A DNA stretch of 64,000 nucleotides from a virus (lineage: Duplodnaviria > Caudoviricetes). The notes below the pieces were generated by a model. The model worked only from the letters and a program-made list of their open reading frames with translations, did not search any database and was not told the origin of the DNA. Location of the stretch: the IMG/VR virus record IMGVR_UViG_3300044655_001017; one strand, given 5' to 3'. Shown here piece by piece: positions 1,003 through 23,600 of the stretch. A program made the translations under genes and the position numbers. How positions within the stretch are numbered: position 1 is the stretch's first letter; every line of letters begins with the position of its first letter.

Positions 1003-1209
1003 GTGAGCCACAAGTCACATACACTGAGATACAATATGGAAGAATTTAATACCTGTACGGAATGCATCCGTCCGGAAGTATGTACAGTAAGATGTGAATG
1101 CAGTATCATTGTTCATGGATCAGAAGAAGTTGCAAAACAACGCGACGAAGCGATGTTTATGGAATGGATTAATGATCATGCAACTAATCGCGATAGAGGT
1201 GCAGAATGA
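1003..1209 (+). CDS. Small Cys-rich hypothetical protein
   Basis: CTEC...CTVRCEC cluster; stop overlaps the polymerase start (ATGA). The start may be the ATG at 1036. Confidence 0.45.
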   Translation: MSHKSHTLRYNMEEFNTCTECIRPEVCTVRCECSIIVHGSEEVAKQRDEAMFMEWINDHATNRDRGAE

Positions 1210-3869
1210 GTTATGTAGATGCATGGTTTGATCGCGATAATGATGTTATTAAAATTGTAGAAAGAAATTCAAAAGGTGAACGGGAATACAAAGATATTGC
1301 CGTTAAACACACATTATATTATACAGACCCGAAAGGGAAATATCAATCAATTTACGGAGACCCCGTATCAAAAGTAATTTGTAACAATACAAAAGAGTTC
1401 CGCAAAGAACTTTCAATACACGGTAATAAAAAGCTGTTTGAAGCAGATATTAATCCAATTTTTAAATGCTTATCAGATAACTACCTTAATCATGACGCAC
1501 CTAAATTAAATATTGCGTTTTATGATATTGAGGTTGATTTCGATCCAGAACGCGGGTATGCATCACCCGATGATGCGTTTATGCCTATTACTGCTATTGC
1601 AGTGTATTTACAATGGTTAGATACTCTTATTTGTTTAGCAATACCTCCAAAGACATTAACTATGGATCAAGCTAAAGAACAAATTAGAGATATTCCAAAT
1701 ACTATTCTCTTTAACACAGAAGCAGAGATGTTAGACACATTTTTAACACTGCTTGAAGATGCTGATATTATTAGCGGATGGAATAGTGAAGGATTTGATA
1801 TACCATACACTGTAAATCGTGTTACAAAAGTTCTATCAAAAGATGATACACGCAGATTCTGCTTGTTTAATCAATTACCAAAAAGACGTGAATATGAAAA
1901 GTACGGCAAAGCTGCAGTAACATACGACTTTGTAGGACGTGTGCATTTAGATAGTTTACAATTATATCAAAAGTACACATATGAAGAAAGACATAGTTTT
2001 AGACTTGATGCTATTGCTGAATATGAGTTAGGTGATCGTAAAACACAGTACGAAGGTACGCTTGATCAGTTATACAACAATGACTTTAGAACGTTTATTG
2101 AGTACAACCGTCAAGATACTATGCTATTACACAGACTTGATACAAAATTAAAGTTTATTGACCTAGCTAATACACTTGCACACGAGAACACTGTATTACT
2201 ACAAACTACTATGGGTGCGGTTGCTGTAACAGAACAAGCAATTATTAACGAATCACATCACAGAGGGTTTGTTGTACCTAACAGAAAAGGTAAAGCAGAA
2301 CCAATTCAAGCTGCAGGTGCGTATGTTGCGTATCCTAAAGAAGGAATTCATGACTGGATTGGCTCGCTAGATATTAACTCTCTGTATCCAAGTGCCATTA
2401 GAGCATTAAATATGGGTCCGGAGACTATTGTAGGACAACTTAGACCAATCGTAACTGACGAATACATAGGCTTACAACTAGCTAAAGGTAAATCGTTTGC
2501 TTCTGCATGGGAAGGGTTGTTTGGTACACTTGAATATACGTCTGTTATGAATGAAGAAATAGGTACTGATATTACAATTGACTGGGAAAATGGCGATACT
2601 GATATATTAAGTGCTGCTGAAGTATACAGATTGATATTTGAAAGTAATCAGCCATGGGTTATGTCAGCTAATGGAACTATCTTTTCATATGAAACAGAAG
2701 GTATTATTCCTGGATTACTAAAGCGATGGTATGCAGAACGTAAGGATATGCAGAAAAAGCTAAAAGAAGCTATTAATGCAGGTAATAAGATTGAAGAAGA
2801 ATATTGGGATAAACGTCAGCTGGTTAAGAAGATTAACCTAAATAGTTTATATGGTGCTATTCTTAATCCTGGATGTAGGTTCTTTGATAAACGTATTGGG
2901 CAATCAACTACGTTAACTGGCAGACAAATTGCTAAACACATGGCAGCTAAAGTAAATGAGATTATAACCGGCGAATACAATCACACAGGTAAGTCTATTA
3001 TTTACGGTGACACTGACTCTTGTTACTTTTCAGCGTATCCTACACTTAAACGTGAAATAGATAATGGTAGTTTACCATGGTCTAAGGAAACTGTTGTTCA
3101 ATTATATGATCAAATTAGTGATCAAGTTAATAGTACATTCCAACAGTTCATGCTTGATGCATTTCATTGCCCTAAATCACGTGGTGAAGTAATTAAAGCT
3201 GGTCGTGAGATTGTTGGTAGTAAGAGCTTATTCATTACTAAAAAACGTTATGCAGTACTAGTATACGATAAGGAAGGTAAACGTAAGGATACACTTGGTA
3301 AAAACGGTGAAATTAAAGCTATGGGCTTAGATTTAAAGCGTAGTGATACACCTGAATTTATTCAAGACTTCTTATCACAAGTATTAGAAATGGTATTAGG
3401 TGGTGATACTGAACAGCATGTACTAGATTACATCAGTAAGTTTAGGATATCGTTTAAAGCTAGACCAGGTTGGGAAAAAGGTTCGCCTAAACGCGCTAAT
3501 AGCATTACGTCTTATTTAGAAAAAGAAGCTAAACAAGGCAAAGTTAATATGCCCGGACATGTTAGAGCAAGTTTAAACTGGAATACACTAAAACGTATGT
3601 ATGATGACAAGTATTCGATGTCTATTACAGACGGTGCAAAGGTAATTGTATGTAAACTTAAACAAAACCCATTAGGGTTTACAAGTGTTGCGTACCCAGT
3701 AGATGAATTACGCTTACCGCAATGGTTTAAAAACCTACCATTTGATCATAATGGAATGGAAGATACTATTATTGATAACAAACTTGATAACTTGATTGGC
3801 ATTTTGAACTGGAAATTAGCTGACACGTCAGATAGAAACACATTTAACAGTTTATTTGAATTTGAATGA
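1206..3869 (+). CDS. gp43: Family B DNA polymerase (T4 gp43-like)
   Basis: ExoI DIEVD, ExoII GWNSEGFDIPY, polymerase motifs SLDINSLYPS, KINLNSLYG and YGDTDS, plus KKRYA. Confidence 0.97.
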   Translation: MSYVDAWFDRDNDVIKIVERNSKGEREYKDIAVKHTLYYTDPKGKYQSIYGDPVSKVICNNTKEFRKELSIHGNKKLFEADINPIFKCLSDNYLNHDAPKLNIAFYDIEVDFDPERGYASPDDAFMPITAIAVYLQWLDTLICLAIPPKTLTMDQAKEQIRDIPNTILFNTEAEMLDTFLTLLEDADIISGWNSEGFDIPYTVNRVTKVLSKDDTRRFCLFNQLPKRREYEKYGKAAVTYDFVGRVHLDSLQLYQKYTYEERHSFRLDAIAEYELGDRKTQYEGTLDQLYNNDFRTFIEYNRQDTMLLHRLDTKLKFIDLANTLAHENTVLLQTTMGAVAVTEQAIINESHHRGFVVPNRKGKAEPIQAAGAYVAYPKEGIHDWIGSLDINSLYPSAIRALNMGPETIVGQLRPIVTDEYIGLQLAKGKSFASAWEGLFGTLEYTSVMNEEIGTDITIDWENGDTDILSAAEVYRLIFESNQPWVMSANGTIFSYETEGIIPGLLKRWYAERKDMQKKLKEAINAGNKIEEEYWDKRQLVKKINLNSLYGAILNPGCRFFDKRIGQSTTLTGRQIAKHMAAKVNEIITGEYNHTGKSIIYGDTDSCYFSAYPTLKREIDNGSLPWSKETVVQLYDQISDQVNSTFQQFMLDAFHCPKSRGEVIKAGREIVGSKSLFITKKRYAVLVYDKEGKRKDTLGKNGEIKAMGLDLKRSDTPEFIQDFLSQVLEMVLGGDTEQHVLDYISKFRISFKARPGWEKGSPKRANSITSYLEKEAKQGKVNMPGHVRASLNWNTLKRMYDDKYSMSITDGAKVIVCKLKQNPLGFTSVAYPVDELRLPQWFKNLPFDHNGMEDTIIDNKLDNLIGILNWKLADTSDRNTFNSLFEFE

Positions 3870-3927: not shown

Positions 3928-4665
3928 ATGAAAAACTTTTTACAAGATTTAGTAGCACATACACACACATTAACCGTTTTACCATTAGTTAAAGTAACCG
4001 CAACTGCAGAAAATGCAGTGATCGAATCAGTAGCAGAAGATAGATCAGTAATGCTGTACGCAACTACACATACGCCAGTTAATGGTCTCGAACCATGCAT
4101 CTTTGGTATGCCAAACTTAAACAAATTAGACTTACATCTTAAATGTCCAGAATATAAAACTGATGCAACTATTAAAGTTGTACAAGAAACTAGAGATGGT
4201 GTGAAAATTCCAACAGGGTTACACTTTTCTAATGTAGCCGGCGATTATGAAAATGATTATAGATTTATGAATGAAGAAATCGTTAGTGCAAAAGTAAAAA
4301 GACCAAAACTTAAAGTAGAAATTGTGTATGACTTAGATTTTATTCCAGCTGAGGTAAGCATTCAGAGATTAAAACACCAAGCTGCTGCACATACTGAAGA
4401 AACTGTATTTCAACTAGTAACAGTTGATAACGATCTAGTATTTAGATTTGGTGATGCTAGTACACACGCAGGATCATTTGTATTCCATCATAACATTAAT
4501 ACTACATTAAAAAATACATGGTCATGGCCAATTACTCCAATTTTAAGTATTTTAAACTTAAATGGTAACTTAACTATGAAAGTTTCAGATCAAGGTTCGT
4601 TACAAATTATAGTTGACAGTGGTATTGCAGTTTATAACTACACTATTCCAGCATACACAAAATAA
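3928..4665 (+). CDS. Probable sliding clamp / polymerase processivity factor (gp45-like)
   Basis: 245 aa, clamp-sized, two-domain beta-rich pattern, directly after the polymerase. Family recognition only; no catalytic motif available. Confidence 0.6.
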   Translation: MKNFLQDLVAHTHTLTVLPLVKVTATAENAVIESVAEDRSVMLYATTHTPVNGLEPCIFGMPNLNKLDLHLKCPEYKTDATIKVVQETRDGVKIPTGLHFSNVAGDYENDYRFMNEEIVSAKVKRPKLKVEIVYDLDFIPAEVSIQRLKHQAAAHTEETVFQLVTVDNDLVFRFGDASTHAGSFVFHHNINTTLKNTWSWPITPILSILNLNGNLTMKVSDQGSLQIIVDSGIAVYNYTIPAYTK

Positions 4666-5057: not shown

Positions 5058-6945
5058 AAACTTAACAGCAACACAACAGGATTATGCCGTGTTTTTGCCA
5101 GCAACGTCGGGTTTTTACTCGACGTTTGTTGGAAAACAACGTTACGGCAATTATGTTGAGCCGTCACGTATTCCAACATCATTTAAAGCAGGCGTAGAAG
5201 GTCTTAATTACTTAGAACCAGAAAAAGGTGAATTTTATTACAGATGGTGTTTGTATTCAGCAGGGCATGCAAACTTAGATTTAAATAAGTTTGACGAAAG
5301 TGAAGATATGTTCCGTAATAGAGATAGAAGTACTAGCTGGGTGTTAGGTGACTCCGGAGGCTTCCAAATAGGGAAAGGTGTATGGGAAGGCGAATGGAGA
5401 GATCCTAACAGTGCAATAGTACAAACAACTATGGCTGATTGCATTGCTAAAGGTATTGAAACTGTTCCTGTACTTGACTCAACAGGAAATCCAGTAGTTA
5501 ACAAAAAAGGTGTTCCTAAAACTACTAAAATTGATCACGTTAAACTATATCAAGCTCGGTTAGATGCTGCTCAAAAGAAAAGAGAGCAAGTATTAGCATG
5601 GATGGATACGTTAATGGATTACGGAATGGTACTTGATATTCCAGCATGGGTTGAACGAAGTCCTGCTGGTAAACTTGCAACTGGTATTACAAGTTATGAC
5701 GAAGCAGTTGATGCTACAATTTATAACAATGAATACTTTATGAAACACCGCAATGGTAACTGTAAATTCTTAAACGTATTACAAGGTGAAACCCATACAC
5801 AAGCTGACGATTGGTATAGTAAGATGAAAGACTTTTGTGATCCTGCTATATATCCAGATACACACTTTAACGGGTGGTCAATGGGTGGTCAAAATATGTG
5901 TGATGCCGAACTAGTACTTAAACGTGTAGTAACATTAAAATTTGACAACTTGTTACAAGAAGGCAAACATGATTGGATGCATTTCTTAGGAACCAGTAAA
6001 TTAGAATGGGCATGCTTTTTAACTGATGTACAACGTGCAGTGCGTAAATATGTTAATCCAAAATTTACTATTAGTTATGATTGTGCTAGTCCATTTTTAG
6101 CTACTGCTAATGGTCAGGTATATATTACTACAGAATTAGATGATAGATCTAAATGGGTGTATCGAATGGTTCCAAGCGTTGACGATAAAAAGTATGCACA
6201 AGATGCTAGACTATTTAAAGATGCAGTAATACAAGATGGTATTTTTAGTGTGTTTGATCCAAGTCCATTAATTGATCAAGTAGCAATTAAAGACGTGTGT
6301 ATATATGGTCACGGTGTTCCTAATTGGACAGAAGTCAATAACGATAATGTTGATCATGCTAACCTATTTACAGATCCAAAATATTTAAATGATCCTAAAT
6401 ACTGGATAACATTAGGCGATGCAAATAAAATTAACAAGATTGGTAAAACTAGTTGGGATAGTTTTAGCTATGCTATTTTAATGGGGCATAATGTGTGGAG
6501 TCACGTTAATGCTGTACAAAAAGCAAATGAAGCTTACGACAACGGTATAATTCCTCGAATGTTAATAGGCGAAAAAACTCAACCGTATGTTGTTAGAGAT
6601 ATTATTGACCGGATTATTGCGTGTGATGATAGAACCGTTGCTATTAAGATGATTGAAGATCTTGAAAAGATATGGATGGCTATTCCGGGCACTAGAGGTA
6701 ACACTGGCAAAAACATAGTTAACAACGAAACTACTACTACTACTAATTATGTAGCCGAATCAATTATTACAGAAAAAGTTGAAAAAATTAGAAAAGTGTT
6801 ATTAACAGATCTTACATCACAAGTTAACAACTTATTTGATTTTGATGACAATATTACAGAAGAAGTAGAATCCGATGACTATGAGTTTTCTGAAGAAGAC
6901 GAACTTACCTTATCTAACCTAGAAGATAGCATTAAACATGAATAG
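5050..6945 (+). CDS. dpdA: DpdA-like DNA 7-deazaguanine transglycosylase (TGT fold)
   Basis: TGT signatures DSGGFQ, LDIP, GWSMGG, HFLG, YDCASP and GHN; clustered with folE, queE and a queD-like gene; acidic C-terminal tail. Confidence 0.8.
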   Translation: MNRNLTATQQDYAVFLPATSGFYSTFVGKQRYGNYVEPSRIPTSFKAGVEGLNYLEPEKGEFYYRWCLYSAGHANLDLNKFDESEDMFRNRDRSTSWVLGDSGGFQIGKGVWEGEWRDPNSAIVQTTMADCIAKGIETVPVLDSTGNPVVNKKGVPKTTKIDHVKLYQARLDAAQKKREQVLAWMDTLMDYGMVLDIPAWVERSPAGKLATGITSYDEAVDATIYNNEYFMKHRNGNCKFLNVLQGETHTQADDWYSKMKDFCDPAIYPDTHFNGWSMGGQNMCDAELVLKRVVTLKFDNLLQEGKHDWMHFLGTSKLEWACFLTDVQRAVRKYVNPKFTISYDCASPFLATANGQVYITTELDDRSKWVYRMVPSVDDKKYAQDARLFKDAVIQDGIFSVFDPSPLIDQVAIKDVCIYGHGVPNWTEVNNDNVDHANLFTDPKYLNDPKYWITLGDANKINKIGKTSWDSFSYAILMGHNVWSHVNAVQKANEAYDNGIIPRMLIGEKTQPYVVRDIIDRIIACDDRTVAIKMIEDLEKIWMAIPGTRGNTGKNIVNNETTTTTNYVAESIITEKVEKIRKVLLTDLTSQVNNLFDFDDNITEEVESDDYEFSEEDELTLSNLEDSIKHE

Positions 6946-7462
6946 ACAGTATAATAACATAACTACTAACACTGCTAAATTTTTTGTTGGTAACGAGGTA
7001 GAACACACACCAGCATATGGTTTAAAAACATTGTTTGTTGTTGGTAATCAAACTATAGAAGCAGTACATTATCGGTTAGATGCTGAAGAAGATGTTACAC
7101 ACATCTTCTTTGGTGCAAACCATAGCTTTAATCCAAATACACCAGGTGCATGGATTGACTGGAATCACATAATTGAACACTTTTTAAAATTAGGCAAACA
7201 GTGTTCATTAGATATTCCATTTACAGTAGTAAACGATTTTAATAATAAAACTAACTTATGTTCATATTCAAATTTTATTCCACAAATTAGAATTCCGGTT
7301 GCAAATATTAAAGATTGGAGTTATAATACAATGATAAAATTAGATGACATAGATTTTAACGCAACTAATCCCGGGGTGTGGACACATAACTTAAAAGCAT
7401 TGCAAAATGATGATGTGTTTACTAGCTGGACTGACTATAACAACGACAATATAATTAAATGA
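6938..7462 (+). CDS. Hypothetical protein coupled to dpdA and the queD-like gene
   Basis: 174 aa, overlaps both neighbours; globular alpha/beta pattern (FFVGNEVEHTPAYG, HIFFGANHSF). Confidence 0.7.
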   Translation: MNRQYNNITTNTAKFFVGNEVEHTPAYGLKTLFVVGNQTIEAVHYRLDAEEDVTHIFFGANHSFNPNTPGAWIDWNHIIEHFLKLGKQCSLDIPFTVVNDFNNKTNLCSYSNFIPQIRIPVANIKDWSYNTMIKLDDIDFNATNPGVWTHNLKALQNDDVFTSWTDYNNDNIIK

Positions 7463-8033: not shown

Positions 8034-8288
8034 ATGGCTAAAAATTACAAAACATTCTCATACTTAGAATCACGTCCAGATGTTGTTAAAATCTTTGAAG
8101 ATTTAGAAGCATTCCATGACTTTTGCAGAATTGAGTTACGTAAATTTGATCCAGCAGATTTATATCGCAAAGATAGTAAATCGTACGGTTCGTACATAGC
8201 AAGTAAACGTCCACGTAAACCATATCAAGGTAATAAACCATGGCCAAACGGTGTTAGACCTAAAAACACATATCAAAAAAAATCTTAA
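8034..8288 (+). CDS. Hypothetical basic protein
   Basis: 84 aa, packed operon position, Lys/Pro-rich tail. Confidence 0.65.
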   Translation: MAKNYKTFSYLESRPDVVKIFEDLEAFHDFCRIELRKFDPADLYRKDSKSYGSYIASKRPRKPYQGNKPWPNGVRPKNTYQKKS

Positions 8289-8301: not shown

Positions 8302-8323
8302 TGAAAGCCCTACGGGGCTTTCA
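8302..8323 (+). other. RNA hairpin with cUACGg tetraloop
   Basis: TGAAAGCCC-TACG-GGGCTTTCA, a 9-bp perfect stem with no U-tract, just upstream of the glycosyltransferase RBS. Confidence 0.55.
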
Positions 8324-8337
8324 CCGCAGGACATATT

Positions 8338-9435
8338 ATGAAATTAAAACCTACTATTTGGATATTTGCTATTGAACCATTAGATACTCGGTATACTAAA
8401 CAATGGATCGAGCATATTCCATCACAACTTAAAGAACACGTTGGTGATTACAACATTGTACAAATTACTGGTGATCAACAAGACTCAGAAGTAACACCGG
8501 GTGCATTTTTAAACTTTATAGATACTAACATTTGGAAAGGATCACAGCTTGTTGGTTTTTTAAAAAACTATAAACGTACTACAACAGCTGACCATTTCTT
8601 ATTTACCGATGCATGGAATCCAGCAATTATAAACTTAAAGTACATTAAAGACTTAATGAGATTAAATTGGACATTTCACGGTTTGTGGCACGCTGGCAGT
8701 TACGACAAACACGATTTCTTAGGTTCAATTGATCACGGTTGGGTTAAACTAGCTGAAAAGAGTTATTATGCAGCATTTGATCATAATTACTTTGCAACTG
8801 AATTCCACGTGCGTATGTTTATGGAACAATTATTAAACAACGGAATGACTAGTGAAAATCCGTGGTTTGAAGAAGATTGGGATGAACGTTACGACGATGG
8901 TAAAATTGTACGCACTGGTTGGCCAATGGAATACTTAGCAGACGAACTAGCGCCGTATGCTAATAAAGAGAAACGTGATTTAATTGTATTTCCACATAGA
9001 GTTGCTAGCGAAAAACAAGTTGATATTTTTAAAGCATTAGCTCATCAATTACCACAATACGACTTTGTTGTATGTCAAGAACAAAAGCTAAGTAAAGATG
9101 AATATCACAACCTGTTAAGCGAAGCAAAGATCGTGTTTAGTGCTAACTTACAAGAAACATTAGGCATTAGTTGTTATGAAGGTGCGTTACTTGGTGCTAT
9201 TCCGATGGTTCCTGATAGATTAAGTTATAAAGAAATGTATATGTATCATTTTAAATATCCATCAGAATGGACTGCTAGTTATGCAGACTACGAATCACAC
9301 AGTTATGATTTGTGTAACAAAATTATCCATTACATAGAAAACTATAATGATATTGTACCATATGTTAAACAACAAGCCGATTACTTAGCACTGGAATTTT
9401 TTAATGCAGGAGATTTATATGACAAGTTTAAATGA
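8338..9435 (+). CDS. GT-B (GT4-like) glycosyltransferase
   Basis: FPHRVASEKQ, ETLGISCYE (E-x7-E nucleotide-sugar motif), GAIPMVPDRLSY, WHAGSYD. Confidence 0.85.
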   Translation: MKLKPTIWIFAIEPLDTRYTKQWIEHIPSQLKEHVGDYNIVQITGDQQDSEVTPGAFLNFIDTNIWKGSQLVGFLKNYKRTTTADHFLFTDAWNPAIINLKYIKDLMRLNWTFHGLWHAGSYDKHDFLGSIDHGWVKLAEKSYYAAFDHNYFATEFHVRMFMEQLLNNGMTSENPWFEEDWDERYDDGKIVRTGWPMEYLADELAPYANKEKRDLIVFPHRVASEKQVDIFKALAHQLPQYDFVVCQEQKLSKDEYHNLLSEAKIVFSANLQETLGISCYEGALLGAIPMVPDRLSYKEMYMYHFKYPSEWTASYADYESHSYDLCNKIIHYIENYNDIVPYVKQQADYLALEFFNAGDLYDKFK

Positions 9436-9835
9436 TACAATAACAACATCAGCTGGGTGTGATACTATTACATTTACGATGGATGGAGATCTACGTTACG
9501 GTATACCAGCTTTTGATACTATTACACTTAGTGACTATGTATCTAGTTCAACTGCTAGCGGAATATACAATGGAACAATGATGGGAACTGCTCCGTACAC
9601 AATTAGTAATTCTTCTACTATTGGAATTAATGGGGGTTCATCTTATTACACCGGCACTGGTGGTTATTGGAATCAATCATATAACGGTAAACCATTTGAA
9701 GATAACTTTCCAGAATGGAATGCATTTAGAGAGTTGTGTGATGAATATCCAGGATTAGAAAGAGCATATCAAAACTTAAAAACTTTTTATACTATGTGCC
9801 ATGCAGATAGTTTATTACCAAAGGACGATAAATGA
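9419..9835 (+). CDS. Hypothetical protein, Ser/Thr/Gly-rich with a helical C-terminal domain
   Basis: AGGAG RBS at about 9408 supports the ATG at 9419 (in frame with the listed 9404). Confidence 0.6.
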   Translation: MTSLNDTITTSAGCDTITFTMDGDLRYGIPAFDTITLSDYVSSSTASGIYNGTMMGTAPYTISNSSTIGINGGSSYYTGTGGYWNQSYNGKPFEDNFPEWNAFRELCDEYPGLERAYQNLKTFYTMCHADSLLPKDDK

Positions 9836-10694: not shown

Positions 10695-10839
10695 AGAAGA
10701 ATTACAAGAAAAAATTGCACAAGTAAAACGTGATATTGCTAAACATAGCGATTCAAACAATCAACGTATGCTGTTAGGTTTGTCACAATATTTAGAATAC
10801 TTAGAAGACGACTTAAAAACATTGACAAACAAGCAATAG
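10678..10839 (+). CDS. Small coiled-coil hypothetical protein (53 aa, absent from the ORF track)
   Basis: GGAGGT RBS, then ATG 10678 (MTDLTKEELQEKIAQVKRDIAKH...) to TAG 10837-10839; fills the gap before folE. Confidence 0.65.
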   Translation: MTDLTKEELQEKIAQVKRDIAKHSDSNNQRMLLGLSQYLEYLEDDLKTLTNKQ

Positions 10840-10850
10840 TGTTGTATAAT
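10822..10850 (+). promoter_or_regulatory. Sigma70-type promoter for the folE-queE genes
   Basis: TTGACA (10822-10827), 17 bp spacer, TATAAT (10845-10850). Confidence 0.85.
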
Positions 10851-10876: not shown

Positions 10877-11548
10877 ATGAGCTTTAATAAAACAAAAACC
10901 GATCTAGAATTAGGTTTAGCAATACATAATCATTTAGTAAGTTTAGGTGTAGAAACTCCAGTAACTGAAAAAATCTTAACAGCATCGGAAAAGATTAATA
11001 TCATTCAGGACAAGTTTTATGATATTATGGTAACATTAGGATTAGACTTAACAGACGATAGTTTAGCAGATACACCTAAACGTGTTGCAAAGATGTTTGT
11101 CAACGAAATATTTTGGGGCCTCGATTACGACGCATTTCCAAAGTGTACTACTATTCAAAATAAGATGGGATACAATGAAATGTTAATTGAACGCAACATT
11201 AACGTACAAAGTAACTGCGAACATCACTTTGTAGTAATTGACGGGTTTGCAACAGTAGGTTACATTCCAAAAGATGTTGTACTTGGATTAAGCAAAATTA
11301 ATCGCGTAGTTGAATACTTTGCAAAACGTCCACAAGTACAAGAAAGATTAACAGAACAAGTATTCCATGCATTGGCATACATTTTAGATACTGATAATAT
11401 TGCAGTAGTTATTGATGCAAAACACTATTGTGTTGCTGCAAGAGGTGTAGAAGATACAGGTAGCACTACTATTACTAGTAAGTTAGGCGGTGCATTTAAA
11501 AACGATCCAACTACTCGTGCAGAATTTATGAGTATTGTAAACAAATAA
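10877..11548 (+). CDS. folE: GTP cyclohydrolase I
   Basis: DTPKRVAKM, CEHH, GLSKINR, RPQVQERLT and HYCVAARGV motifs. Confidence 0.96.
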   Translation: MSFNKTKTDLELGLAIHNHLVSLGVETPVTEKILTASEKINIIQDKFYDIMVTLGLDLTDDSLADTPKRVAKMFVNEIFWGLDYDAFPKCTTIQNKMGYNEMLIERNINVQSNCEHHFVVIDGFATVGYIPKDVVLGLSKINRVVEYFAKRPQVQERLTEQVFHALAYILDTDNIAVVIDAKHYCVAARGVEDTGSTTITSKLGGAFKNDPTTRAEFMSIVNK

Positions 11549-11556
11549 GGAGAGTT

Positions 11557-12000
11557 ATGAAAGACTTAAAACCACAAATTCCAGCAGTAGGCATTATGAA
11601 AACAAGTGACTGGGGTAACAGTAAAATTTATAAAATTCAATGCACATGCGGCAACGACGATGATAGTATTGAGTTTATGGTTGAGGCAGATGATCTTAAT
11701 ATGATTACTGTAACTACATTTACAACGCAAAAAACTGCGTACTGGGATAGACCATTTGATGTTTCAAACACATACAAAATTAAAAATTCGTTTTTAAGCA
11801 GTATTGCATACGAAACATTGAGCTTTCTTAACGGGTTTCAGCATCGTATTAAAATGACATGGAATTTGTGGTTTAATGGTTATCTTAAATATCAGCAATC
11901 AACTATAATGACTGAACAACAGACATTAAACTATGCAGAAACATTGAAAGCTGCTATTAAAGATTGCAAAGATTTTCGTAAACAAGATAGGAACAATTAA
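11557..12000 (+). CDS. Hypothetical protein between folE and queE
   Basis: 147 aa, AAGGAG RBS, CxC motif (QCTCG), stop overlaps the queE start. Confidence 0.7.
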   Translation: MKDLKPQIPAVGIMKTSDWGNSKIYKIQCTCGNDDDSIEFMVEADDLNMITVTTFTTQKTAYWDRPFDVSNTYKIKNSFLSSIAYETLSFLNGFQHRIKMTWNLWFNGYLKYQQSTIMTEQQTLNYAETLKAAIKDCKDFRKQDRNN

Positions 12001-12839
12001 TGTTATTAAAAGTATCGGAATTATTTTACTCATTACAAGGCGAAGGGCGATTTATGGGAGTACCGTCCATCTTCTTACGTACATACGGTTGCAACTTTAA
12101 ATGCCAAGGGTTTGGCATGCCTAAAGGTGAACATAGTGTACAAGCAGATGCTATTGCTAATAACGGTGTGCAATATCATTCGTATGATGAGTTACCGTTA
12201 GTAACTACTGGCTGTGACAGTTATGCAAGTTGGCATCCAACGTTTAAACATCTAAGTCCAACTATGTCAATAGACGAAGTTGCAGCTAAAATGATTGAGC
12301 TGTTACCTAACAATGAATGGGGTGGTGTACACTTAGTTATTACAGGTGGCGAACCATTACTACCCGGTTGGCAAAAGATATATCCAGAATTACTAAGACA
12401 CCCATTATTAGCAGACTTAAAAAACATTACATTTGAAACTAATGGTACACAAGAACTGTTACAAGATTTTGAAAACTACTTATACATGGAAAGACGGTAT
12501 CAAACTACGTTTTCAGTTAGTCCTAAGCTAAGTGTAAGTGGCGAGCCTAGAGAAAAAGCTATACGTCCTGAGATTGTAACAGAATATCAATTTTCAGGTC
12601 ATAGTTCATTCTTAAAATTTGTAGTAGCATCCGAAGACGATGTAACAGAAGCACTTGAAGTAATGCAGCTATATAAAGACAACGGATTTAGAGGTGATAT
12701 TTACTTAATGCCAGTAGGCGGTGTAACTGATGTATACAATCTTAATAATCGACGAGTAGCAGAACTTGCATTAAAGCACGGATTGAGATACAGTGATAGA
12801 CTTCACCTCCCTCTCTTCGGTAACAACTGGGGAACATAA
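12000..12839 (+). CDS. queE: 7-carboxy-7-deazaguanine synthase (radical SAM)
   Basis: ELFYSLQGEG, FLRTYGCNFKC...GCDS, LVITGGEP, FETNG, SVSPK, YLMP and SDRLH motifs. Confidence 0.92.
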   Translation: MLLKVSELFYSLQGEGRFMGVPSIFLRTYGCNFKCQGFGMPKGEHSVQADAIANNGVQYHSYDELPLVTTGCDSYASWHPTFKHLSPTMSIDEVAAKMIELLPNNEWGGVHLVITGGEPLLPGWQKIYPELLRHPLLADLKNITFETNGTQELLQDFENYLYMERRYQTTFSVSPKLSVSGEPREKAIRPEIVTEYQFSGHSSFLKFVVASEDDVTEALEVMQLYKDNGFRGDIYLMPVGGVTDVYNLNNRRVAELALKHGLRYSDRLHLPLFGNNWGT

Positions 12840-13291
12840 TGTTTGAAAATTTTATAAAGAAAGTGTTTGGTGGTGAAAATCCAGAACTAAAACATCAACA
12901 AGAAGTACAAGCTGCAATTAAAGCTAAACAACAAGCTAAGGTTAAACCTAAACCTAAACCTAAAGCTAAAGCTAAAGAAAAGGTAATTGAAAAATTGCCA
13001 TTAACTGATAAAGAAAAAGCCACGTTAAGAAAAGAACCATGGGTTGATGTAATTGGATTTAAAGTTAATCCAAGTAACATTAGAAACGGTTTCTTTGAAA
13101 TTGATTGGAATGATTATTGGATTGAAAAATTAAAACAAGAGGGTTACGGGTTTGATGGTGATCCTGAAGAAGAAATAGTAGGTCGTTGGTACAGAGATAT
13201 TTGTATGAACGCTGCAGCCGTCGAAGGTGTTGATATATCAGATCAAGACTTCGGTTTCCTTAACGTGCAACGAGCAACAGGTAACAAATGA
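12839..13291 (+). CDS. Hypothetical protein
   Basis: 150 aa, Lys/Pro-rich linker then a globular domain (EPWVDV...GFFEIDWND); overlaps both neighbours. Confidence 0.7.
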   Translation: MFENFIKKVFGGENPELKHQQEVQAAIKAKQQAKVKPKPKPKAKAKEKVIEKLPLTDKEKATLRKEPWVDVIGFKVNPSNIRNGFFEIDWNDYWIEKLKQEGYGFDGDPEEEIVGRWYRDICMNAAAVEGVDISDQDFGFLNVQRATGNK

Positions 13292-14274
13292 CATTTATTT
13301 TAGTTGACACTTCAAACTTATTTTATCGAGCTAGGCATTCAGTGCAAGGCAATGCTGACTTAAAACTTGGTATGGCATTACACATTACATTTAATAGTGT
13401 TAAAAAAGCATGGCAAGACTTTGATGGTACACATGTAGTGTTTTGTTTAGAAGGACGCAGTTGGCGTAAAGACTTTTACGAACCATATAAACGCAATCGT
13501 GCAGAAACTCGAGCTGCTATGACAGTGCGTGAACAAGAAGAAGATAAACTTTTTTGGGAGGCATACGGTGATTTTACAACATTTTTAAATGAAAAAACTA
13601 ATTGTACCGTATTGCAACATTCACGTTTAGAAGCTGACGATTTAATTGCCGGATTTATTCAACTGCATCCGGAAGATAAGCACGTTATTGTTAGTACAGA
13701 TACTGATTTTCATCAACTAATTAGTGAATCTATTAGCCAGTATAACGGCGTAGCAGATCAACACGTTACACATACTGGTTATTACGATGCTAAGGGTAAA
13801 CCTGTAATTGATAAAAAAACAGGTGAACATAAAGTACCGTTTGATCCGGAATGGATATTATTTGAAAAATGTATCCGTGGCGATACTAGTGATAATGTGT
13901 TTTCAGCATATCCGGGTGCAAGAACTAAAGGTACTTCAAAGAAAATAGGATTAACTGAAGCATTTGAGGATCGCAACACAAAAGGATATGCATGGAATAA
14001 CTTCTTATTACAAAAATGGACTGATCATAATGGTCAAGAACATCGAGTTTTAGATGATTACGAACGAAATCGCGTATTAATCGACTTAACTAAACAGCCA
14101 GAAGACATACGTACAATTATCAACGAAACTATTAGTAATAATTCTAAGCCAAAGTGTATTACACAAGTTGGTTCACGAATGATTAAATTTTGCCAGTCAT
14201 ATGATATGAAAAGAATGATTGATAATATTCAAACATTTGCAGAACCTTTTCAAGCAAACTATCCAACAACATAA
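13288..14274 (+). CDS. rnh: RNase H / 5'-3' exonuclease (T4 Rnh, FEN-like)
   Basis: ILVDTSN, LEADDLIA, STDTDFHQL and GDTSDNV acidic FEN motifs. Confidence 0.9.
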   Translation: MTFILVDTSNLFYRARHSVQGNADLKLGMALHITFNSVKKAWQDFDGTHVVFCLEGRSWRKDFYEPYKRNRAETRAAMTVREQEEDKLFWEAYGDFTTFLNEKTNCTVLQHSRLEADDLIAGFIQLHPEDKHVIVSTDTDFHQLISESISQYNGVADQHVTHTGYYDAKGKPVIDKKTGEHKVPFDPEWILFEKCIRGDTSDNVFSAYPGARTKGTSKKIGLTEAFEDRNTKGYAWNNFLLQKWTDHNGQEHRVLDDYERNRVLIDLTKQPEDIRTIINETISNNSKPKCITQVGSRMIKFCQSYDMKRMIDNIQTFAEPFQANYPTT

Positions 14275-16012: not shown

Positions 16013-17104
16013 ATGAGCAACAACATCGCATCACGTACAGTCGGCCCAAAAGGCGCTAAAAAATCTTTACGCAAAGCGTTTAGCAGTAAACGTCCATTGT
16101 TTATTTGGGGACCTCCAGGAATTGGTAAATCAGACATTATTAAACAACTTGGTACTGAGTTAAATGCTCATGTTACTGACGTGCGTTTAAGTTTATGGGA
16201 GCCAACAGACATTAAAGGTATTCCATACTTTGATTCAGTAGACCAAACAATGGTATGGGCTCCACCATCAGAGCTGCCTAGCAAATCATTTGCTGAAAAA
16301 CACAAAATGATTATTTTGTTCTTAGATGAGATGAATTCTGCTGCACCAAGTGTACAGGCTGCTGCTTATCAACTTATTTTAAATCGTCGCGTAGGACAAT
16401 ACGAATTACCAGACAACGTTGTTATTGTTGCTGCTGGTAACAGAGAAACAGACAAAGGTGTTACTTATCGCATGCCAGCTCCATTAGCCAACAGATTTAT
16501 CCACTTAGAAATGGCTGTTGAATGGGATGACTACTTTGAATGGGCTACAGACAACAATGTACATCCAGATGTTGTTGGTTACTTAACTGCTTGCAAAAGT
16601 GATTTATACACCTTTGATTCAAAATCAGCAGATAGAGCATTTGCTACACCACGTTCATGGAGCTTTGTTAGCGAGTTGTTAACAGATGGCGACACTGACT
16701 CAGATACATTAGCTGACTTAGTTGCTGGTTCAATTGGCGAGGGTCTTGCTATTAAATTTATGGCACACAGACAGTTTTCAAGTAAACTTCCTGATCCACG
16801 CGCTGTACTTGACGGTAAAATTACACATTGCGAAACTAAAGAGATTTCAGCAATGTATTCACTAACTGTTAGTATGTGCTACGAGTTGAAAGAACTTTTC
16901 AACAAAAAATCTCCTAACAAAAACACAGCAATGAACAATTACTTTTTGTTTATGATGAACAACTTTGAAACTGAAATTGCAATTATGGGTACTAAACTTG
17001 CGTTATGCTCATACAAATTGCAAATTGATCCAGACGACATTGCGTGCTTTGATGATTTCCACAGCAAGTACGGCAAATACATTACTGCTGCAAGCGGTCA
17101 GTAA
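16013..17104 (+). CDS. MoxR-like AAA+ ATPase
   Basis: Walker A GPPGIGKS, Walker B ILFLDEMN, sensor AAGNR, PLANRF and TPRSW motifs. Confidence 0.9.
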   Translation: MSNNIASRTVGPKGAKKSLRKAFSSKRPLFIWGPPGIGKSDIIKQLGTELNAHVTDVRLSLWEPTDIKGIPYFDSVDQTMVWAPPSELPSKSFAEKHKMIILFLDEMNSAAPSVQAAAYQLILNRRVGQYELPDNVVIVAAGNRETDKGVTYRMPAPLANRFIHLEMAVEWDDYFEWATDNNVHPDVVGYLTACKSDLYTFDSKSADRAFATPRSWSFVSELLTDGDTDSDTLADLVAGSIGEGLAIKFMAHRQFSSKLPDPRAVLDGKITHCETKEISAMYSLTVSMCYELKELFNKKSPNKNTAMNNYFLFMMNNFETEIAIMGTKLALCSYKLQIDPDDIACFDDFHSKYGKYITAASGQ

Positions 17105-17115
17105 TACCAAAACAG

Positions 17116-17144
17116 TTGACACCGCCGCAAGGCGGTGTTATACT
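17116..17144 (+). promoter_or_regulatory. Sigma70-type promoter whose spacer is a GNRA hairpin/palindrome
   Basis: TTGACA (17116-17121), 17 bp spacer, TATACT (17139-17144); ACACCGCC-GCAA-GGCGGTGT at 17119-17138. Confidence 0.7.
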
Positions 17145-17174
17145 TTGTACTTTATAATTATGCAGGAGTAATTC

Positions 17175-18353
17175 ATGGCTTTAGATTCAATTGTTGATAA
17201 AATTATCGTAGCTCGCGTAGGCTTACTATTACGCCATCCTTTCTTTGGTACTATGGCAACACGTTTAAAAATTGTAGACGGATCCGACTGGTGTCCAACT
17301 GCAGCAACTGACGGTCGTCATATCTTTTATAATCGTGAGTTTTTTGAACCGTTAACTGTAAAACAAATTGAATTTGTTATTGGTCATGAAATTCTACACA
17401 ACGTTTTTGATCACATGTCACGTCGTGATGGTCGCAATCCTAAAATCTTTAATATTGCATGTGACTATAATGTAAATGGTCAGTTAATTCGTGATAAGAT
17501 CGGTGAAGTTCCGCCTGTTATTAAAATCTTCCACGACACTAACTATTACGGTATGGGTTCTGAAGAAATTTATGATAAGTTACTAGAAGATCACGATGAA
17601 GAGTCACTTTCTAAAATCGGTGAAATGCTCGACGAACACATTGACTGGGAAAGTGCAGGCCCAAACGGTCGTCCAACATACAGTAAAGAAGAATTGAAAA
17701 AGATTCGTGATGAGATTCGTGAAGCCACTATGACTGCAGCACAAGCAGCTGGTGCAGGTAATACTCCGGCAAGTATTGCGCGGTTGATTAGAGATCTTAC
17801 TGAATCTAAAATGAACTGGCGTGAGATTTTACGTCAGCAAATTCAAAGTACTATTAAAAATGACTTTTCGTTTATGCGTCCTAACAGAAAAGGTTGGCAC
17901 ATGAATGCTATTTTGCCAGGTACTAACTATGACGAAACAATTGATATCTGTGTTGCAATCGATATGTCAGGTTCAATTGGCGATGATCAAGCTAGAGATT
18001 TCTTAAGTGAGATTAAAGGCATCATGCAAGAGTATCAAGACTTTAGTATTAAGTTATGGTGCTTTGATACACAAGTATACAACGAAGCATCATTTACCGG
18101 TTATACTATTTCTGAATTTGATGAATATCAACCAAAAGGTGGCGGTGGTACTGACTTTGATGTTAACTGGGAATATATGAAGGAAAATGACATTGTTCCT
18201 AAAAAGTTCATTATGTTTACTGACGGGTATCCGTTTGGCAGTTGGGGCGACGAAACGTACACAGATACTTTATTTATTATACACGGTAATGATTCAATTG
18301 TTCCACCATGGGGCGAATATTCATACTATGAGTTTTCAAAAGAAAAGGCATAA
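17175..18353 (+). CDS. Metallopeptidase-like + vWA domain protein (DUF2201-like)
   Basis: TAATDG and HEILH (HExxH) in the N-terminal half; MIDAS DMSGS, GGGGTDF and FTDGY in the C-terminal half. Confidence 0.85.
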   Translation: MALDSIVDKIIVARVGLLLRHPFFGTMATRLKIVDGSDWCPTAATDGRHIFYNREFFEPLTVKQIEFVIGHEILHNVFDHMSRRDGRNPKIFNIACDYNVNGQLIRDKIGEVPPVIKIFHDTNYYGMGSEEIYDKLLEDHDEESLSKIGEMLDEHIDWESAGPNGRPTYSKEELKKIRDEIREATMTAAQAAGAGNTPASIARLIRDLTESKMNWREILRQQIQSTIKNDFSFMRPNRKGWHMNAILPGTNYDETIDICVAIDMSGSIGDDQARDFLSEIKGIMQEYQDFSIKLWCFDTQVYNEASFTGYTISEFDEYQPKGGGGTDFDVNWEYMKENDIVPKKFIMFTDGYPFGSWGDETYTDTLFIIHGNDSIVPPWGEYSYYEFSKEKA

Positions 18354-19565: not shown

Positions 19566-19857
19566 AGAAGTAGTTGCACACTGGCCAGAAGTATTTGAAG
19601 AGGTATCACTTAATGTGTTACCTCTTCTTTATTTGCATTCAGTAGTTATTAATTTTAAAGATAATAAGTCTTGGGAAATAAAATTAACAACTAAAATAAA
19701 AAAAGATGGATGGAATAGCTTTCAACAGAGTTTATCAGAATTGTTAAATTCGTATGAAGAAGAAATAGACGATGTAGATTTTAAACTAGATGCAGTAAAA
19801 GTAAAAAAAGATGTAGAAAAACTAACCAATAAATTTTTAAAGAAACAAAAATTATGA
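19537..19857 (+). CDS. Hypothetical protein
   Basis: 106 aa, TTG start with an upstream AAGG, overlaps thyX. Confidence 0.6.
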   Translation: MLKQTKPLPKEVVAHWPEVFEEVSLNVLPLLYLHSVVINFKDNKSWEIKLTTKIKKDGWNSFQQSLSELLNSYEEEIDDVDFKLDAVKVKKDVEKLTNKFLKKQKL

Positions 19858-20621
19858 ACATTAAATTAGTATCATATTCTCAACCAACTGAAGAATTTGC
19901 TGAATTAGGAATTACCGATGCACAAGAACTTATAGCATTTTGCGCTCGTGTAAGTAATCCGTCAAATCAGTTTAATACAGAAACTTCAGAAAAACTTATC
20001 AACTACTTAATTAAGCATGCGCATTGGTCACCGCTTGAAATGGTTAATGTGTGTTTAGAAGTAAATACCACCCGCGATATTGCACGTCAATTACTACGTC
20101 ACGCTTCATTTAGATTCCAAGAGTTTAGTCAACGCTATGCAGATCCAACAAACGATCTGTCTTTTGAAATACGCGATGCTAGATTTCAAGATCCTAAAAA
20201 TCGTCAAAATTCAATTACAATTAATACTGCAGAAGAAGAGGCGATTAATGACGAATGGCATCTAAGACAAGAAGCTCATATTAATTCAGCAAAAGCACAA
20301 TATGAATGGGCAATTAGCAAAGGCATTGCTAAAGAGCAAGCTCGTGTCGTTCTTCCAGAAGGCAACACTAAAAGTCGTGTGTATGTTAACGGGACGTTGC
20401 GCTCATGGATTCATTACATACAAGTGCGCAGTAACGTGGATACACAGCTTGAACACAAACAAGTTGCAGTAGCGTGTGCGCAAGCAATTAGCGCAGTATT
20501 TCCAATGGTAAATGACTTTGTTTATAAGGAAGAACCAGTTTTAGAACCTATTAAAGAAGAAATTGTTGAACCTAAAAAACTTAAATGGCATCAACACTTT
20601 TTTAATTTTTACAAACACTAA
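19854..20621 (+). CDS. thyX: Flavin-dependent thymidylate synthase
   Basis: ARVS, HWSPLE, RHASFRFQEFSQRY (RHx-x7-S), EQARVVLP, TLRSWIHY and TQLEH motifs. Confidence 0.93.
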   Translation: MNIKLVSYSQPTEEFAELGITDAQELIAFCARVSNPSNQFNTETSEKLINYLIKHAHWSPLEMVNVCLEVNTTRDIARQLLRHASFRFQEFSQRYADPTNDLSFEIRDARFQDPKNRQNSITINTAEEEAINDEWHLRQEAHINSAKAQYEWAISKGIAKEQARVVLPEGNTKSRVYVNGTLRSWIHYIQVRSNVDTQLEHKQVAVACAQAISAVFPMVNDFVYKEEPVLEPIKEEIVEPKKLKWHQHFFNFYKH

Positions 20622-20661: not shown

Positions 20662-23600
20662 TTACAAGTTAAAATCCTTACTATACGTCTTACCTACTAC
20701 TAAAGGAGCATCTTTAAAATATACGTTCACAAACGCTTTTCCTCGAAATGCATTGTCTGGAATTGATAGTGTAGATGTAGAACTCGACTCTCCAACTGTA
20801 GAAAACGAATAATCGTTTGGATCAACTAATTCATACGTTGCCTCATATACTTTTTTGTGTATATTATTAGTAGCACTTGTAATATTATCAGTAACAGATA
20901 TAGTAGACCAGTCATTGTTTACAACGTTTGATATCCCTCCGGTTAACTCACGCGACGGTATTGCAGGTAATGATGGTAGTAATACTGGTCCTGTAATGGG
21001 ACCAGTATTACCTCCTCCTTGCACTGGTCCAATAATAACAATTCCAGCATTTGGGTCTGCTAACCCAATTGCTGTTGTTTTTGTTGCAGTTTTACCATCT
21101 ACAAACGTAATTGTTAATATTGCTGATCCAATTATACCATATGGTATAGTGCCAGTTCCTGTTCCTGTCTGTATAGGTAAGGTTATCTGTGGAGAAACAC
21201 CTACAGTAACACCAGTACCGCCAGTACTATATGTGTAAACTGCAGTTTTTGATATAATTTCTAACTGACTTGTTGTTGTATCAGATACTACAAACACAGT
21301 ATTAGAACCGTTTTTAGTATTTGAGGTAGTAGTAAAGCTTCCAGTAATTACACGTAATGCTTCGTCAACTGCAGTTCTACCACTTGTAGATTCAGTCGCA
21401 TAACCTGTAGCATTTCTTGCAATAACTGTTACTGTATAATTTACATACTGTTGCAAATTATTATATGCGCGTATAAAGAGTCCGTTATTTTCAGAAATTA
21501 TTGTCGGATAGTTTGGATTTACATCTATATTTGTTTCATAACTAGCTACTGCACCACCTGAGGTCGGAGCCCTCCATTGGATTGCTAAACTCGAAGGTGA
21601 TATTGCACTAATTAACAAACTAGTAGGTTTTCCGGGAGATGCAGGTGGTTGCTGTATTAACTCCTGTATTCCAAACGATCTCGTAATTGGTAACGTTCTA
21701 TCATCTCGAAAATGCAACGTTAATGTTGCAGATCCAATAACACCTGCTGGCATTACAAATGAAGTTATTGGTGTGTTTCCCGCTAGTGTATCATATTTTT
21801 GAACGTTATATTGAGGAGCTGCCTCACCACCAACATACCCAGTAACATATGATGCTAAGAATGATCTGCCATCAATATTAGCTGATACAATATTGTCAGA
21901 TATAGAAATAGTAACAAAATTAGTAGTACCTTGTCGCGTACTAGTTATATTAAATTCACCTGTGTAATCTTGCGGTAGTAAGGTAAACGCAGTAGTAGCA
22001 GTTGTCTGTGCAGAATTTGATCCTGACACATTAATTGCAGTTACTGTAATTGTATATAATGTATGTTGAGTTAACCCCGATAATGTAGTTGTGTACAAAT
22101 CTCCAGATGCATCTGTTGTTGTATAGATTGTGTCAGTACCATTAATTGGAGTACTTGTCGCATATTGTGCAGAAACTGTATATCGGTCAGCTGACCCACC
22201 TATTGGGCTAGTAGTCTTACGCCAGTGAACTAACATTGACGTGTTTTGTATTCGACTTACACTTACTGCCGACGGTGCGCCTGCTACCGATTGCACTGCA
22301 GGTAAATTAGATTTTTCTGTCGAAACTGTTAATTTTTGTCCATCTGCATATGTTAATGTTAAAAATCCTTGGCAGTCAGTCGAAAATGCAATATCAATTG
22401 GGTTTGGTGCCGACTGAGCTGCTGTCTTAGTTGCTTTAGTACCGTATACATAATAATAAGTACGTTGTGCGCTAATATCATCACTAGTAATGTTAGCTGT
22501 TATTGATGCAATTACTTTAGTACGATTTGTGTCGTAAGCTAAATTTAAAGTTAATGTACCTGAATATTCATGCACTGTACCAGGTGAAATTGTACGACCA
22601 GTCCACGGAGTCCACGATCCTATATTATCGCCATACTGTGATTCAACATACTCAAAAGTAATTGATACCATACCATCGTCTGGGTTTGACCCTGCAAATC
22701 TAAATCCAGTCGGGACATACGATGTTCCGCCTTTGCCGCCAGTTGCACCATCTTTAGATGTATTACCAAGAGTTCCGGCGGCGCCACCTGGGGCGCCGCC
22801 ACCACCGCCACCGGCGCCACCTTTACCGCTTCCATCAGAGCCTGTTACACCGTTAGAAATTGCAGAATAAGATGATGATTGGTTAGTAGCAGAGGCATTA
22901 CCACCTGCACCACCGCTTTCTGTTGAATAACTTCCTCCGCCGCCGCCACCTGCACCTACACATACCGGGGTTCCTACAAAAGAAGTCCCAATAAATATTG
23001 CAGATGCGCCGCCGCCTGCACCGCCGCCGCCTGATTCAGATGCACCACTCTTCCCTCCAGAGCCGCCTATTCCTAATACGTTGTTAACAGCAATACCCGG
23101 TGCATACCGAACACTTTCTGCCGGAGTTCCTAGTTGCCCGACTACTACGGATAAAGAAGTAGCTGATGTTAATGCAGTCGATGTACCACTTATTGAATCA
23201 CCAGGAGTTGGATTTCTACTATATCCCATACTTCCGGCAGCTCCTGAAACAACAACTGATTTAACTTTCACACCGTCTCGAAATACGATAACACCCGATA
23301 CTCCGTAATGTTTAGTAACCGTTTTTATTACATCTGTAATAGTTAGTGTAGCAGTTCTAGTATTCCCATCTTCAAATTTTGCAGTAAACGTACCAACACC
23401 TGCACCGGGGTTACTATCTTTATACTCTATTGTTAACTTACCAGTACTATCTAAATTTGCTTTATGCCACGAACTGTTGCTTGTAAAAGTACCTGTACCA
23501 ACTATTGATATTAACACTTGTGAGCCAGCTTTACCACCTGTTATCATTACGTTTGAAGTTCCATTAGATCCGCGTGACGCAGGATCAATTACTATCGATT

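Follow-up and report, generated by a model that had tools for sequence, protein, structure and literature searches.

A GT4-like glycosyltransferase linked to the QueC-less DpdL deazaguanine cluster of phages: a candidate for sugar decoration of 7-deazaguanine

Related systems and the locus

In Cellulophaga phage phiST, a QueC-less gene cluster of the DpdL type gives unsubstituted 2'-deoxy-7-deazaguanosine (dDG), with 100% replacement of dG (Cui, Hutinet et al., NAR 2023, PMC10516641). We have analysed a comparable locus on a stretch of 64,000 nucleotides (the window) of the virus record IMGVR_UViG_3300044655_001017 (Duplodnaviria; Caudoviricetes), in which a predicted glycosyltransferase (GT) gene lies among deazaguanine genes. 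Proteins were annotated over this 64-kb stretch, and the complete genomes of relatives were used for wider gene searches. As in phiST, FolE and QueE occur together with DpdL, which has the LxxxHRHxF motif, and a DpdA3-like transglycosylase, beside a DNA polymerase (PMC10516641). Because the DpdL motif, the DpdA3-like gene, FolE and QueE are present and no QueC was found in the window, we class the locus, from its sequence, as a deazaguanine cluster probably of the QueC-less DpdL type; QueC was not found in the genomes of the related phages PA5oct and Phosso either. The two loci differ in that no phiST record matched the GT in a tblastn search of phages, and in that the window adds a Gpt-like purine phosphoribosyltransferase (PRTase) and was found to hold no canonical QueD. 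Acidovorax phage ACP17 has been listed as carrying dpdA and dpdL, with the GT unmentioned (PMC10516641); we find a GT orthologue between these two genes.

We propose that the GT glycosylates the 7-deazaguanine made by its cluster, probably in DNA, as an accessory of the QueC-less DpdL/DpdA3 system. Membership of the GT in the deazaguanine system is strongly supported; to the glycosylation itself we give an even chance. To our knowledge, none of the eight described 7-deazaguanine DNA modifications carries a sugar, and the proposal, if true, would provide the first sugar-bearing purine analogue in any genome. A GT that travels with DpdL and DpdA, in phages and in chromosomal islands, predicts a new class of hypermodified purine.

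A sugar is placed on a 7-deazaguanine nucleoside within a polynucleotide by vertebrate QTMAN, which mannosylates queuosine in tRNA (PMC11755703, PMC12518689). QTMAN (GTDC1) and the phage GT are both GT-B enzymes of the GT4 type and share the motifs HR...(D/E)K and P(D/N)RL(S/A)YxE; in alignment with QTMAN-family proteins, R221/K226 and E273/E281 of the GT fall on their HR...K and E...E positions. With a test set of six QTMAN_N proteins and 24 control Glycos_transf_1 proteins from the same genomes, the GT family profile gave hhalign scores of 77-108 (E 3e-10 to 1e-14) for the former and no more than 41 for the latter. Comparison of the C-terminal donor domain with that of the QTMAN family gave an hhalign probability of 99.2% (E 1.4e-19), and the QTMAN family is, at the sequence level, the closest relative that we found for this half of the protein. 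The whole GT as a member of the QTMAN family was rejected, since the C-terminal domain alone is related, and a search for QTMAN_N (PF12038) in five GT-carrying genomes, four of phages and one bacterial, gave nothing at E<=1. When the ESM Atlas was searched by shape, bacterial QTMAN_N proteins were among the nearest named clusters, with template modelling (TM) scores of 0.71-0.74, no better than those to other GT4 clusters. QTMAN is unlike the GT in its acceptor, the cyclopentenediol hydroxyl of queuosine in tRNA, which belongs to a side chain that the window's cluster cannot make, and in its N-terminal acceptor domain, which is not detectably related. The link between the two suggests a common origin of deazaguanine sugar decoration in tRNA and DNA.

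The alpha- and beta-glucosyltransferases of phage T4 have the GT-B fold. These and other phage DNA glycosyltransferases, which act on 5-hydroxymethylcytosine (hmC), 5-hydroxymethyluracil (hmU) or 5-hydroxycytosine, resemble the GT in this fold, in being phage-encoded and in lying among DNA metabolism genes; they and the GT are alike presumed to decorate a non-canonical base after replication and so to escape host nucleases. They differ from it in having no sequence similarity, and its acceptor would be a purine analogue. Neither T4 enzyme was among the top 50 structural matches of the GT in the PDB. Closer in structure are BshA and MshA, the GT4 UDP-GlcNAc transferases of bacillithiol and mycothiol, with Z scores of ~24 and a root-mean-square deviation of ~3 Å over ~300 residues. 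In their pathways a deacetylase follows the glycosyltransferase, as it does in some GT lineages (the phage locus L091 and, with a distant GT homologue, phage PhiXhv-12). However, they are 10-12% identical to the GT in sequence, act on small metabolites and have an unrelated genomic setting.

Fold, donor site and gene linkage

The GT gene is the open reading frame (ORF) at 8338-9435 on the + strand, which starts with ATG, has AGGA ~8 nt upstream and encodes 365 amino acids (aa). The first-pass annotation had called its product a GT-B glycosyltransferase. That the gene is real is borne out by the start, the AGGA and a large conserved family: clustering at 90% identity leaves more than 8000 clusters, a 50% identity cut-off leaves 1078 representatives (E<=1e-3), and many members come from viral contigs of 100-400 kb. 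The GT-B label needed testing, because searches with the single sequence matched nothing in Pfam, PHROG, NCBIfam or the PDB sequences. AlphaFold2, given 62 diverse homologues that share 28-76% identity with the query, produced a model with a mean predicted local distance difference test score (pLDDT) of 94.2 and a predicted TM score (pTM) of 0.92, which consists of two Rossmann-like halves in a two-domain GT-B fold. Foldseek matched this model to GT4/GT5 enzymes at E 1e-10. VIA-align gave Z scores of 20-26 to GT4/GT5 structures over residues 3-365, the best being those for sucrose-phosphate synthase (26.0), BshA (24.5) and MshA (23.9); GlgM, LmbT, glycogen synthase and PimA were further matches. 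PF00534 (Glycos_transf_1) was weakly matched by 47 of the 62 family members at E<=1, at best 3e-8, and the GT itself reached 14.7 bits, below the gathering score of 26.4. The family is a divergent relative that falls outside the Pfam model itself, and the AlphaFold2 model, the structural matches and these weak matches together uphold the label.

GT4 and GT5 enzymes are retaining glycosyltransferases. In GT4 enzymes the active site is in the interdomain cleft, and the donor site, in the C-terminal domain, has an E-x7-E motif and, for binding the diphosphate of the nucleotide sugar, an Arg/Lys pair. The GT carries both elements, as E273-x7-E281 and R221/K226. Over the 62 homologues E281 never varies, conservation of H118, R221, K226 and E273 is 90% or higher, and these residues are likely to form the donor-site and catalytic set, if their roles follow established GT4 knowledge. 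We conclude that the GT is a real and probably active, though divergent, GT4-like enzyme, and that its mechanism is probably retaining.

Homologues of the GT, 21-47% identical, were found in Sinorhizobium phage Phosso, the Pseudomonas PA5oct group, Acidovorax phage ACP17, Xanthomonas phages BUDD and X1 and Burkholderia phage BCSR5, and remoter ones on metagenomic contigs. DpdL lies within 9 kb of the GT in every one of the ten divergent phage lineages that have enough flanking sequence; gene order in the cluster varies from lineage to lineage, and the stop and start codons of the two genes often abut or overlap. QueE (8/10), DpdA (7/10) and FolE (7/10) are also nearby, and no further family is common to more than seven of the ten. 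Within the close clade, for which IMG/VR loci were collected with a 17-sequence GT alignment, all 27 full loci keep the order polymerase, clamp-like ORF, dpdA, dpdL, GT, queE. The phage database has 22 records with a GT match and 28 with a DpdL match; 17 have both, against 0.012 expected by chance, although these 17 are not phylogenetically independent and collapse to ~5 lineages. The five records with the GT only are distant partial homologues adjoining GlmS and a deacetylase. The predicted complex of GT and DpdL scored 0.00 in a run without controls, which speaks neither for nor against binding. Rhizobium phage RHph_I1_18 (L093, 8408-9232) has a DpdL 58% identical to that of the window and had no GT match in the phage tblastn; after its dpdL, at the place of the GT in other phages, there is a gene for a macrodomain (Appr-1-p processing) protein.

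Some lineages carry sugar-tailoring genes. One deazaguanine cluster with the GT (L091, 12303-13891) includes a polysaccharide deacetylase and a methyltransferase, and another (L098, 6316-8026) a UDP-GlcNAc 2-epimerase and an FdtA-like sugar isomerase. In Xanthomonas phage PhiXhv-12 (L008, 6642-9876) the distant GT homologue follows GlmS and a BshB-like deacetylase with no DpdL nearby, an arrangement that suggests a glucosamine-type modification in a different system. The tailoring genes of these three are a hint that those phages use an N-acetylhexosamine donor. No gene of this kind is present in the window, and for that reason a host nucleotide sugar is presumed to be the donor.

The GT also occurs outside phages. 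A scan of one genome per species gave 19 loci, of which ten (L108-L116, L118) are in bacterial chromosomes or large contigs, their hosts including Pelagibacterium, Ochrobactrum, Devosia, Aurantimonas, Azospirillum, Roseobacter and others. A DpdA3-like gene adjoins the GT in all ten islands. Nine have a membrane protein of ~175 aa between or beside these two genes, with a YhhQ/Vut_1-type motif and a weak Pfam Vut_1 match; the transporters of 7-deazapurine precursors belong to this family. DpdL was detected in just two. The surroundings are ordinary chromosomal genes, with a resolvase at one locus, and since they contain no phage replication genes the islands tie the GT to DpdA independently. 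They may be a cellular system that puts deazaguanine into DNA and includes a sugar step.

The proposed reaction and alternative acceptors

In the scheme that we favour, FolE, a QueD encoded by the host or elsewhere in the phage genome, and QueE would make 7-carboxy-7-deazaguanine (CDG), DpdL would convert CDG to 7-deazaguanine, and the DpdA3-like transglycosylase would exchange guanine in phage DNA for this base. A host nucleotide sugar would supply a hexose or N-acetylhexosamine, which the GT would transfer to the deazaguanine base, most likely after insertion of the base into DNA. The sugar would then be a second protective layer against nucleases and glycosylases that recognise deazaguanine DNA. 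Candidate acceptor sites would be the nucleophilic C7 (giving a C-glycoside), the carboxyl of CDG (giving an acyl glycoside of dCDG, the deoxynucleoside form of CDG), N2, an undescribed substituent, or a precursor.

Two published observations fit such a transfer after insertion, and the first of them is also indirect support for dDG in place of dG in virion DNA. The DNA of PA5oct, whose GT orthologue is EST35_0317, resists enzymes with G-containing restriction sites, through a chemistry that was left undetermined (PMC12191111), and dpdL and dpdA of ACP17 gave no dDG in E. coli, where the authors suggested that further enzymes were needed (PMC10516641). The sugar step may explain why these two genes failed by themselves. 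It would also be relevant to the ways in which modification-dependent defences are escaped or triggered by jumbo phages, of which the therapy candidate PA5oct is one (PMC12191111). The fuller prediction is that glycosylated 7-deazaguanine occurs in the DNA of some alphaproteobacteria and of phages of this type, among them PA5oct, ACP17, Phosso and BUDD, and is made by a distant cousin of the queuosine-mannosylating enzyme through a chemistry unseen in DNA, such as a C7 C-glycoside of dDG or an acyl glycoside of dCDG. This we put forward tentatively, as somewhat short of an even chance. It concerns phages that are already cultured, and dDG-DNA can be obtained by PCR with commercial 7-deaza-dGTP.

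Several findings weigh against a glycosylated deazaguanine in DNA. There is no hydroxyl or amine at C7 of dDG, so that an O-glycoside of the T4 type could not form unless some additional step came first; among the lineages the GT has no hydroxylase, oxygenase or reductase as a conserved companion. Lacking both an acceptor group on dDG and a conserved oxygenase or reductase, the system would need either an unusual linkage or a precursor as acceptor. The first-pass annotation had suggested a 7-substituted deazaguanine in DNA as a possible acceptor: the tie to deazaguanine agrees with our results, whilst this particular acceptor is a candidate with a chemical difficulty, the DpdL type yielding, in phiST, dDG with no hydroxyl. 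Seven DpdL-bearing phage lineages, phiST among these, have no GT match, which makes the GT an optional addition to the DpdL system. In the nearest solved structures the acceptors are small molecules (fructose-6-P, malate, inositol-P, ergothioneine), and a cyanophage DNA alpha-glycosyltransferase came only 25th in the BFVD viral fold search, with a TM score of 0.50. The N-terminal acceptor domain compared with QTMAN_N gave a profile E of 0.05 and a probability of 1%. Literature searches turned up neither a glycosylated deazaguanine in DNA nor a glycosylated purine detected by mass spectrometry. We gave up net charge as an indicator of DNA binding, since the DNA-acting DpdA and polymerase of the window are equally acidic.

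A precursor might instead be the acceptor, with the GT glycosylating a free 7-deazapurine base, a nucleotide or a pterin before insertion, and DpdA3, or a polymerase via the PRTase route, then taking the glycosylated or sugar-activated intermediate. Such a role would suit the tightest linkage being to DpdL, whose predicted substrate is the free base and whose gene so often touches that of the GT, and the nearest structures being GT4 enzymes with small-molecule acceptors, a tetrahydrobiopterin glucosyltransferase included; the conserved N-domain residues of the GT are, moreover, mostly acidic or aromatic, with few basic ones. However, eight of the ten bacterial islands have the GT and DpdA with no DpdL detected, QTMAN works on tRNA and not on queuine (PMC11755703), and the published DNA base glycosylations that we read of occur on the polymer (PMC13326640). 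We consider a precursor acceptor rather unlikely. The acceptor might also lie outside nucleic acids and their precursors altogether, in a glycan of the host envelope or in a protein (DpdA, for example, or one of host defence), given that GT4 acceptors are highly diverse and that the fold by itself shows no function. This too is unlikely, more clearly so, as the linkage to dpdL and dpdA lasts across ten phage lineages and ten islands with no other conserved partner, and the GT sequence has no evident membrane segment or signal peptide. A catalytically dead GT, serving as a structural partner of DpdL or DpdA, would accord with there being no Pfam model above threshold on the window GT, but is scarcely credible when 62 diverse sequences keep the donor-site residues wholly or almost wholly and sugar-tailoring genes stand alongside the GT in some lineages.

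As far as we know, DNA base glycosylation is confined to hydroxylated pyrimidines, and the characterised phage DNA glycosyltransferases in the literature that we found act on these. The GT could on this precedent glycosylate another modified DNA base (hmU, hmC or 5-hydroxycytosine), in the manner of the T-even and RB69 enzymes, and be merely located in a replication and modification module. A search for genes of the hmC and hmU pathways, run on the window ORFs and the genomes of relatives, found ThyA-family proteins in PA5oct and Phosso only. That of Phosso has the canonical thymidylate synthase motifs PCH and PFNIASY. That of PA5oct (L005, 1501-2361) is divergent, with PSCH for PPCH, though the uracil-type Asn is kept, and from its sequence could be either an enzyme that modifies dUMP or a thymidylate synthase. 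In the complete genomes of ACP17 and BUDD the GT is present without any ThyA-family gene, and the bacterial islands have DpdA and the GT with no pyrimidine-modifying gene. Scanning of the window ORFs turned up ThyX and no hydroxymethylase of the ThyA family, in keeping with the earlier remark that it holds no dCMP hydroxymethylase. A search for Tet/JBP in four genomes gave no match, a result of little weight as its control was also silent. The first-pass annotation had further tied the GT to deazaguanine and not to hmC, and with DpdL linked in ten of ten lineages, DpdA in ten of ten islands, and no ThyA in ACP17 and BUDD, we concur: an activity of the hmC/hmU type is unlikely, and a pyrimidine acceptor of any of these kinds has a slim chance at most.

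Neighbouring genes and minor observations

The GT lies in a long series of + strand genes, which includes those from the DNA polymerase to the flap endonuclease (Table 1). It was rightly placed inside the deazaguanine cluster, being flanked by the DpdA3-like gene, dpdL, the PRTase gene, folE and queE, but to call all of its neighbours deazaguanine genes was an overstatement, as several small intervening ORFs are of unknown function.

Table 1. Features of the window around the GT gene
Feature	Position	Strand	Basis or remark
Family B DNA polymerase	1206-3869	+	
245-aa ORF, clamp-like	3928-4665	+	Phosso homologue annotated as sliding clamp
DpdA3-like DNA 7-deazaguanine transglycosylase, 631 aa	5050-6945	+	Motif, hhalign, BLAST chain
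174-aa protein of unknown fold	6938-7462	+	Between dpdA and dpdL, overlapping both
DpdL (QueD paralogue, proposed CDG decarboxylase), 119 aa	7459-7818	+	LxxxHRHxF motif
Small basic protein, 84 aa, isoelectric point 9.8	8034-8288	+	Directly upstream of GT
GT-B, GT4-like glycosyltransferase, 365 aa	8338-9435	+	AlphaFold2 fold
143-aa ORF	9404-9835	+	
Gpt-like purine PRTase, 176 aa	9832-10362	+	PF00156 4.8e-17
FolE, GTP cyclohydrolase I	10877-11548	+	PF01227 3.7e-60
147-aa ORF	11557-12000	+	
QueE-type radical SAM enzyme (7-carboxy-7-deazaguanine synthase)	12000-12839	+	PF04055 3.8e-07
Conserved 150-aa protein of unknown function after queE	12839-13291	+	
Flap endonuclease	13288-14274	+	
ThyX	19854-20621		

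The 631-aa ORF has an invariant GDSGG + Q motif, as in TGT. Its comparison with the 424-aa protein upstream of the ACP17 GT gave an hhalign probability of 83% (E 9e-6), and BLAST single linkage connects it to a BUDD gene annotated as queuine tRNA-ribosyltransferase. Pfam TGT did not match this ORF, and hidden Markov models of the DpdA and DpdL alignments, run against Pfam and the PDB, recovered neither TGT nor PTPS. From the motif, the hhalign result and the BLAST chain we identify the protein as DpdA3-like with moderate confidence.

The LxxxHRHxF motif separates DpdL from QueD, which has CxxxHGH, and DpdL has been proposed to be a CDG decarboxylase (PMC10516641). In the window's DpdL the motif is present, and it is conserved across 14 aligned homologues; the protein is 31% identical to the phiST match (tblastn) and 56% identical to that of ACP17. 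The window QueE is homologous to the annotated QueE of PA5oct, ACP17 and BUDD. The ORF that precedes it was ruled out as QueD, having neither the CxxxHGH motif nor a PTPS match. The PRTase, found in 22 of the 27 close-clade loci and in PA5oct, is nearest to xanthine/guanine PRTases, with a xanthine PRTase as best NCBIfam match, and may serve guanine salvage or a nucleotide route.

Three of the smaller proteins recur at related loci. The 150-aa protein after queE is in all 27 close-clade loci and also in PA5oct and Phosso. The 174-aa protein is in 25 of the 27 and beside dpdA in ACP17, and was not found in the remaining distant lineages; as a universal partner that makes an acceptor hydroxyl it was rejected, being confined to the close clade and ACP17. 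The 84-aa basic protein, kept in 24 of the 27 and with no homologue detected in distant lineages, has a tail rich in Lys, Arg and Pro and could be a DNA-binding helper. The 49-nt gap between its ORF and the GT start contains a perfect 8-bp GC-rich hairpin with a 4-nt loop (8304-8323), which has no T-run after it on the + strand and may be an RNA processing or stability element. Just upstream of folE, at 10822-10850, there is a 12/12 match to the sigma-70 consensus (TTGACA, 17 nt, TATAAT), the sole perfect match in 10 kb.

Further along the window, the gene for a MoxR-type AAA+ ATPase precedes that for a DUF2201 metallopeptidase/VWA protein (16013-18353). Two giant ORFs, of 3274 aa (20662-30486) and 4222 aa (38738-51406), lie on the - strand among baseplate and tail genes, and the former contains fibronectin type III repeats.

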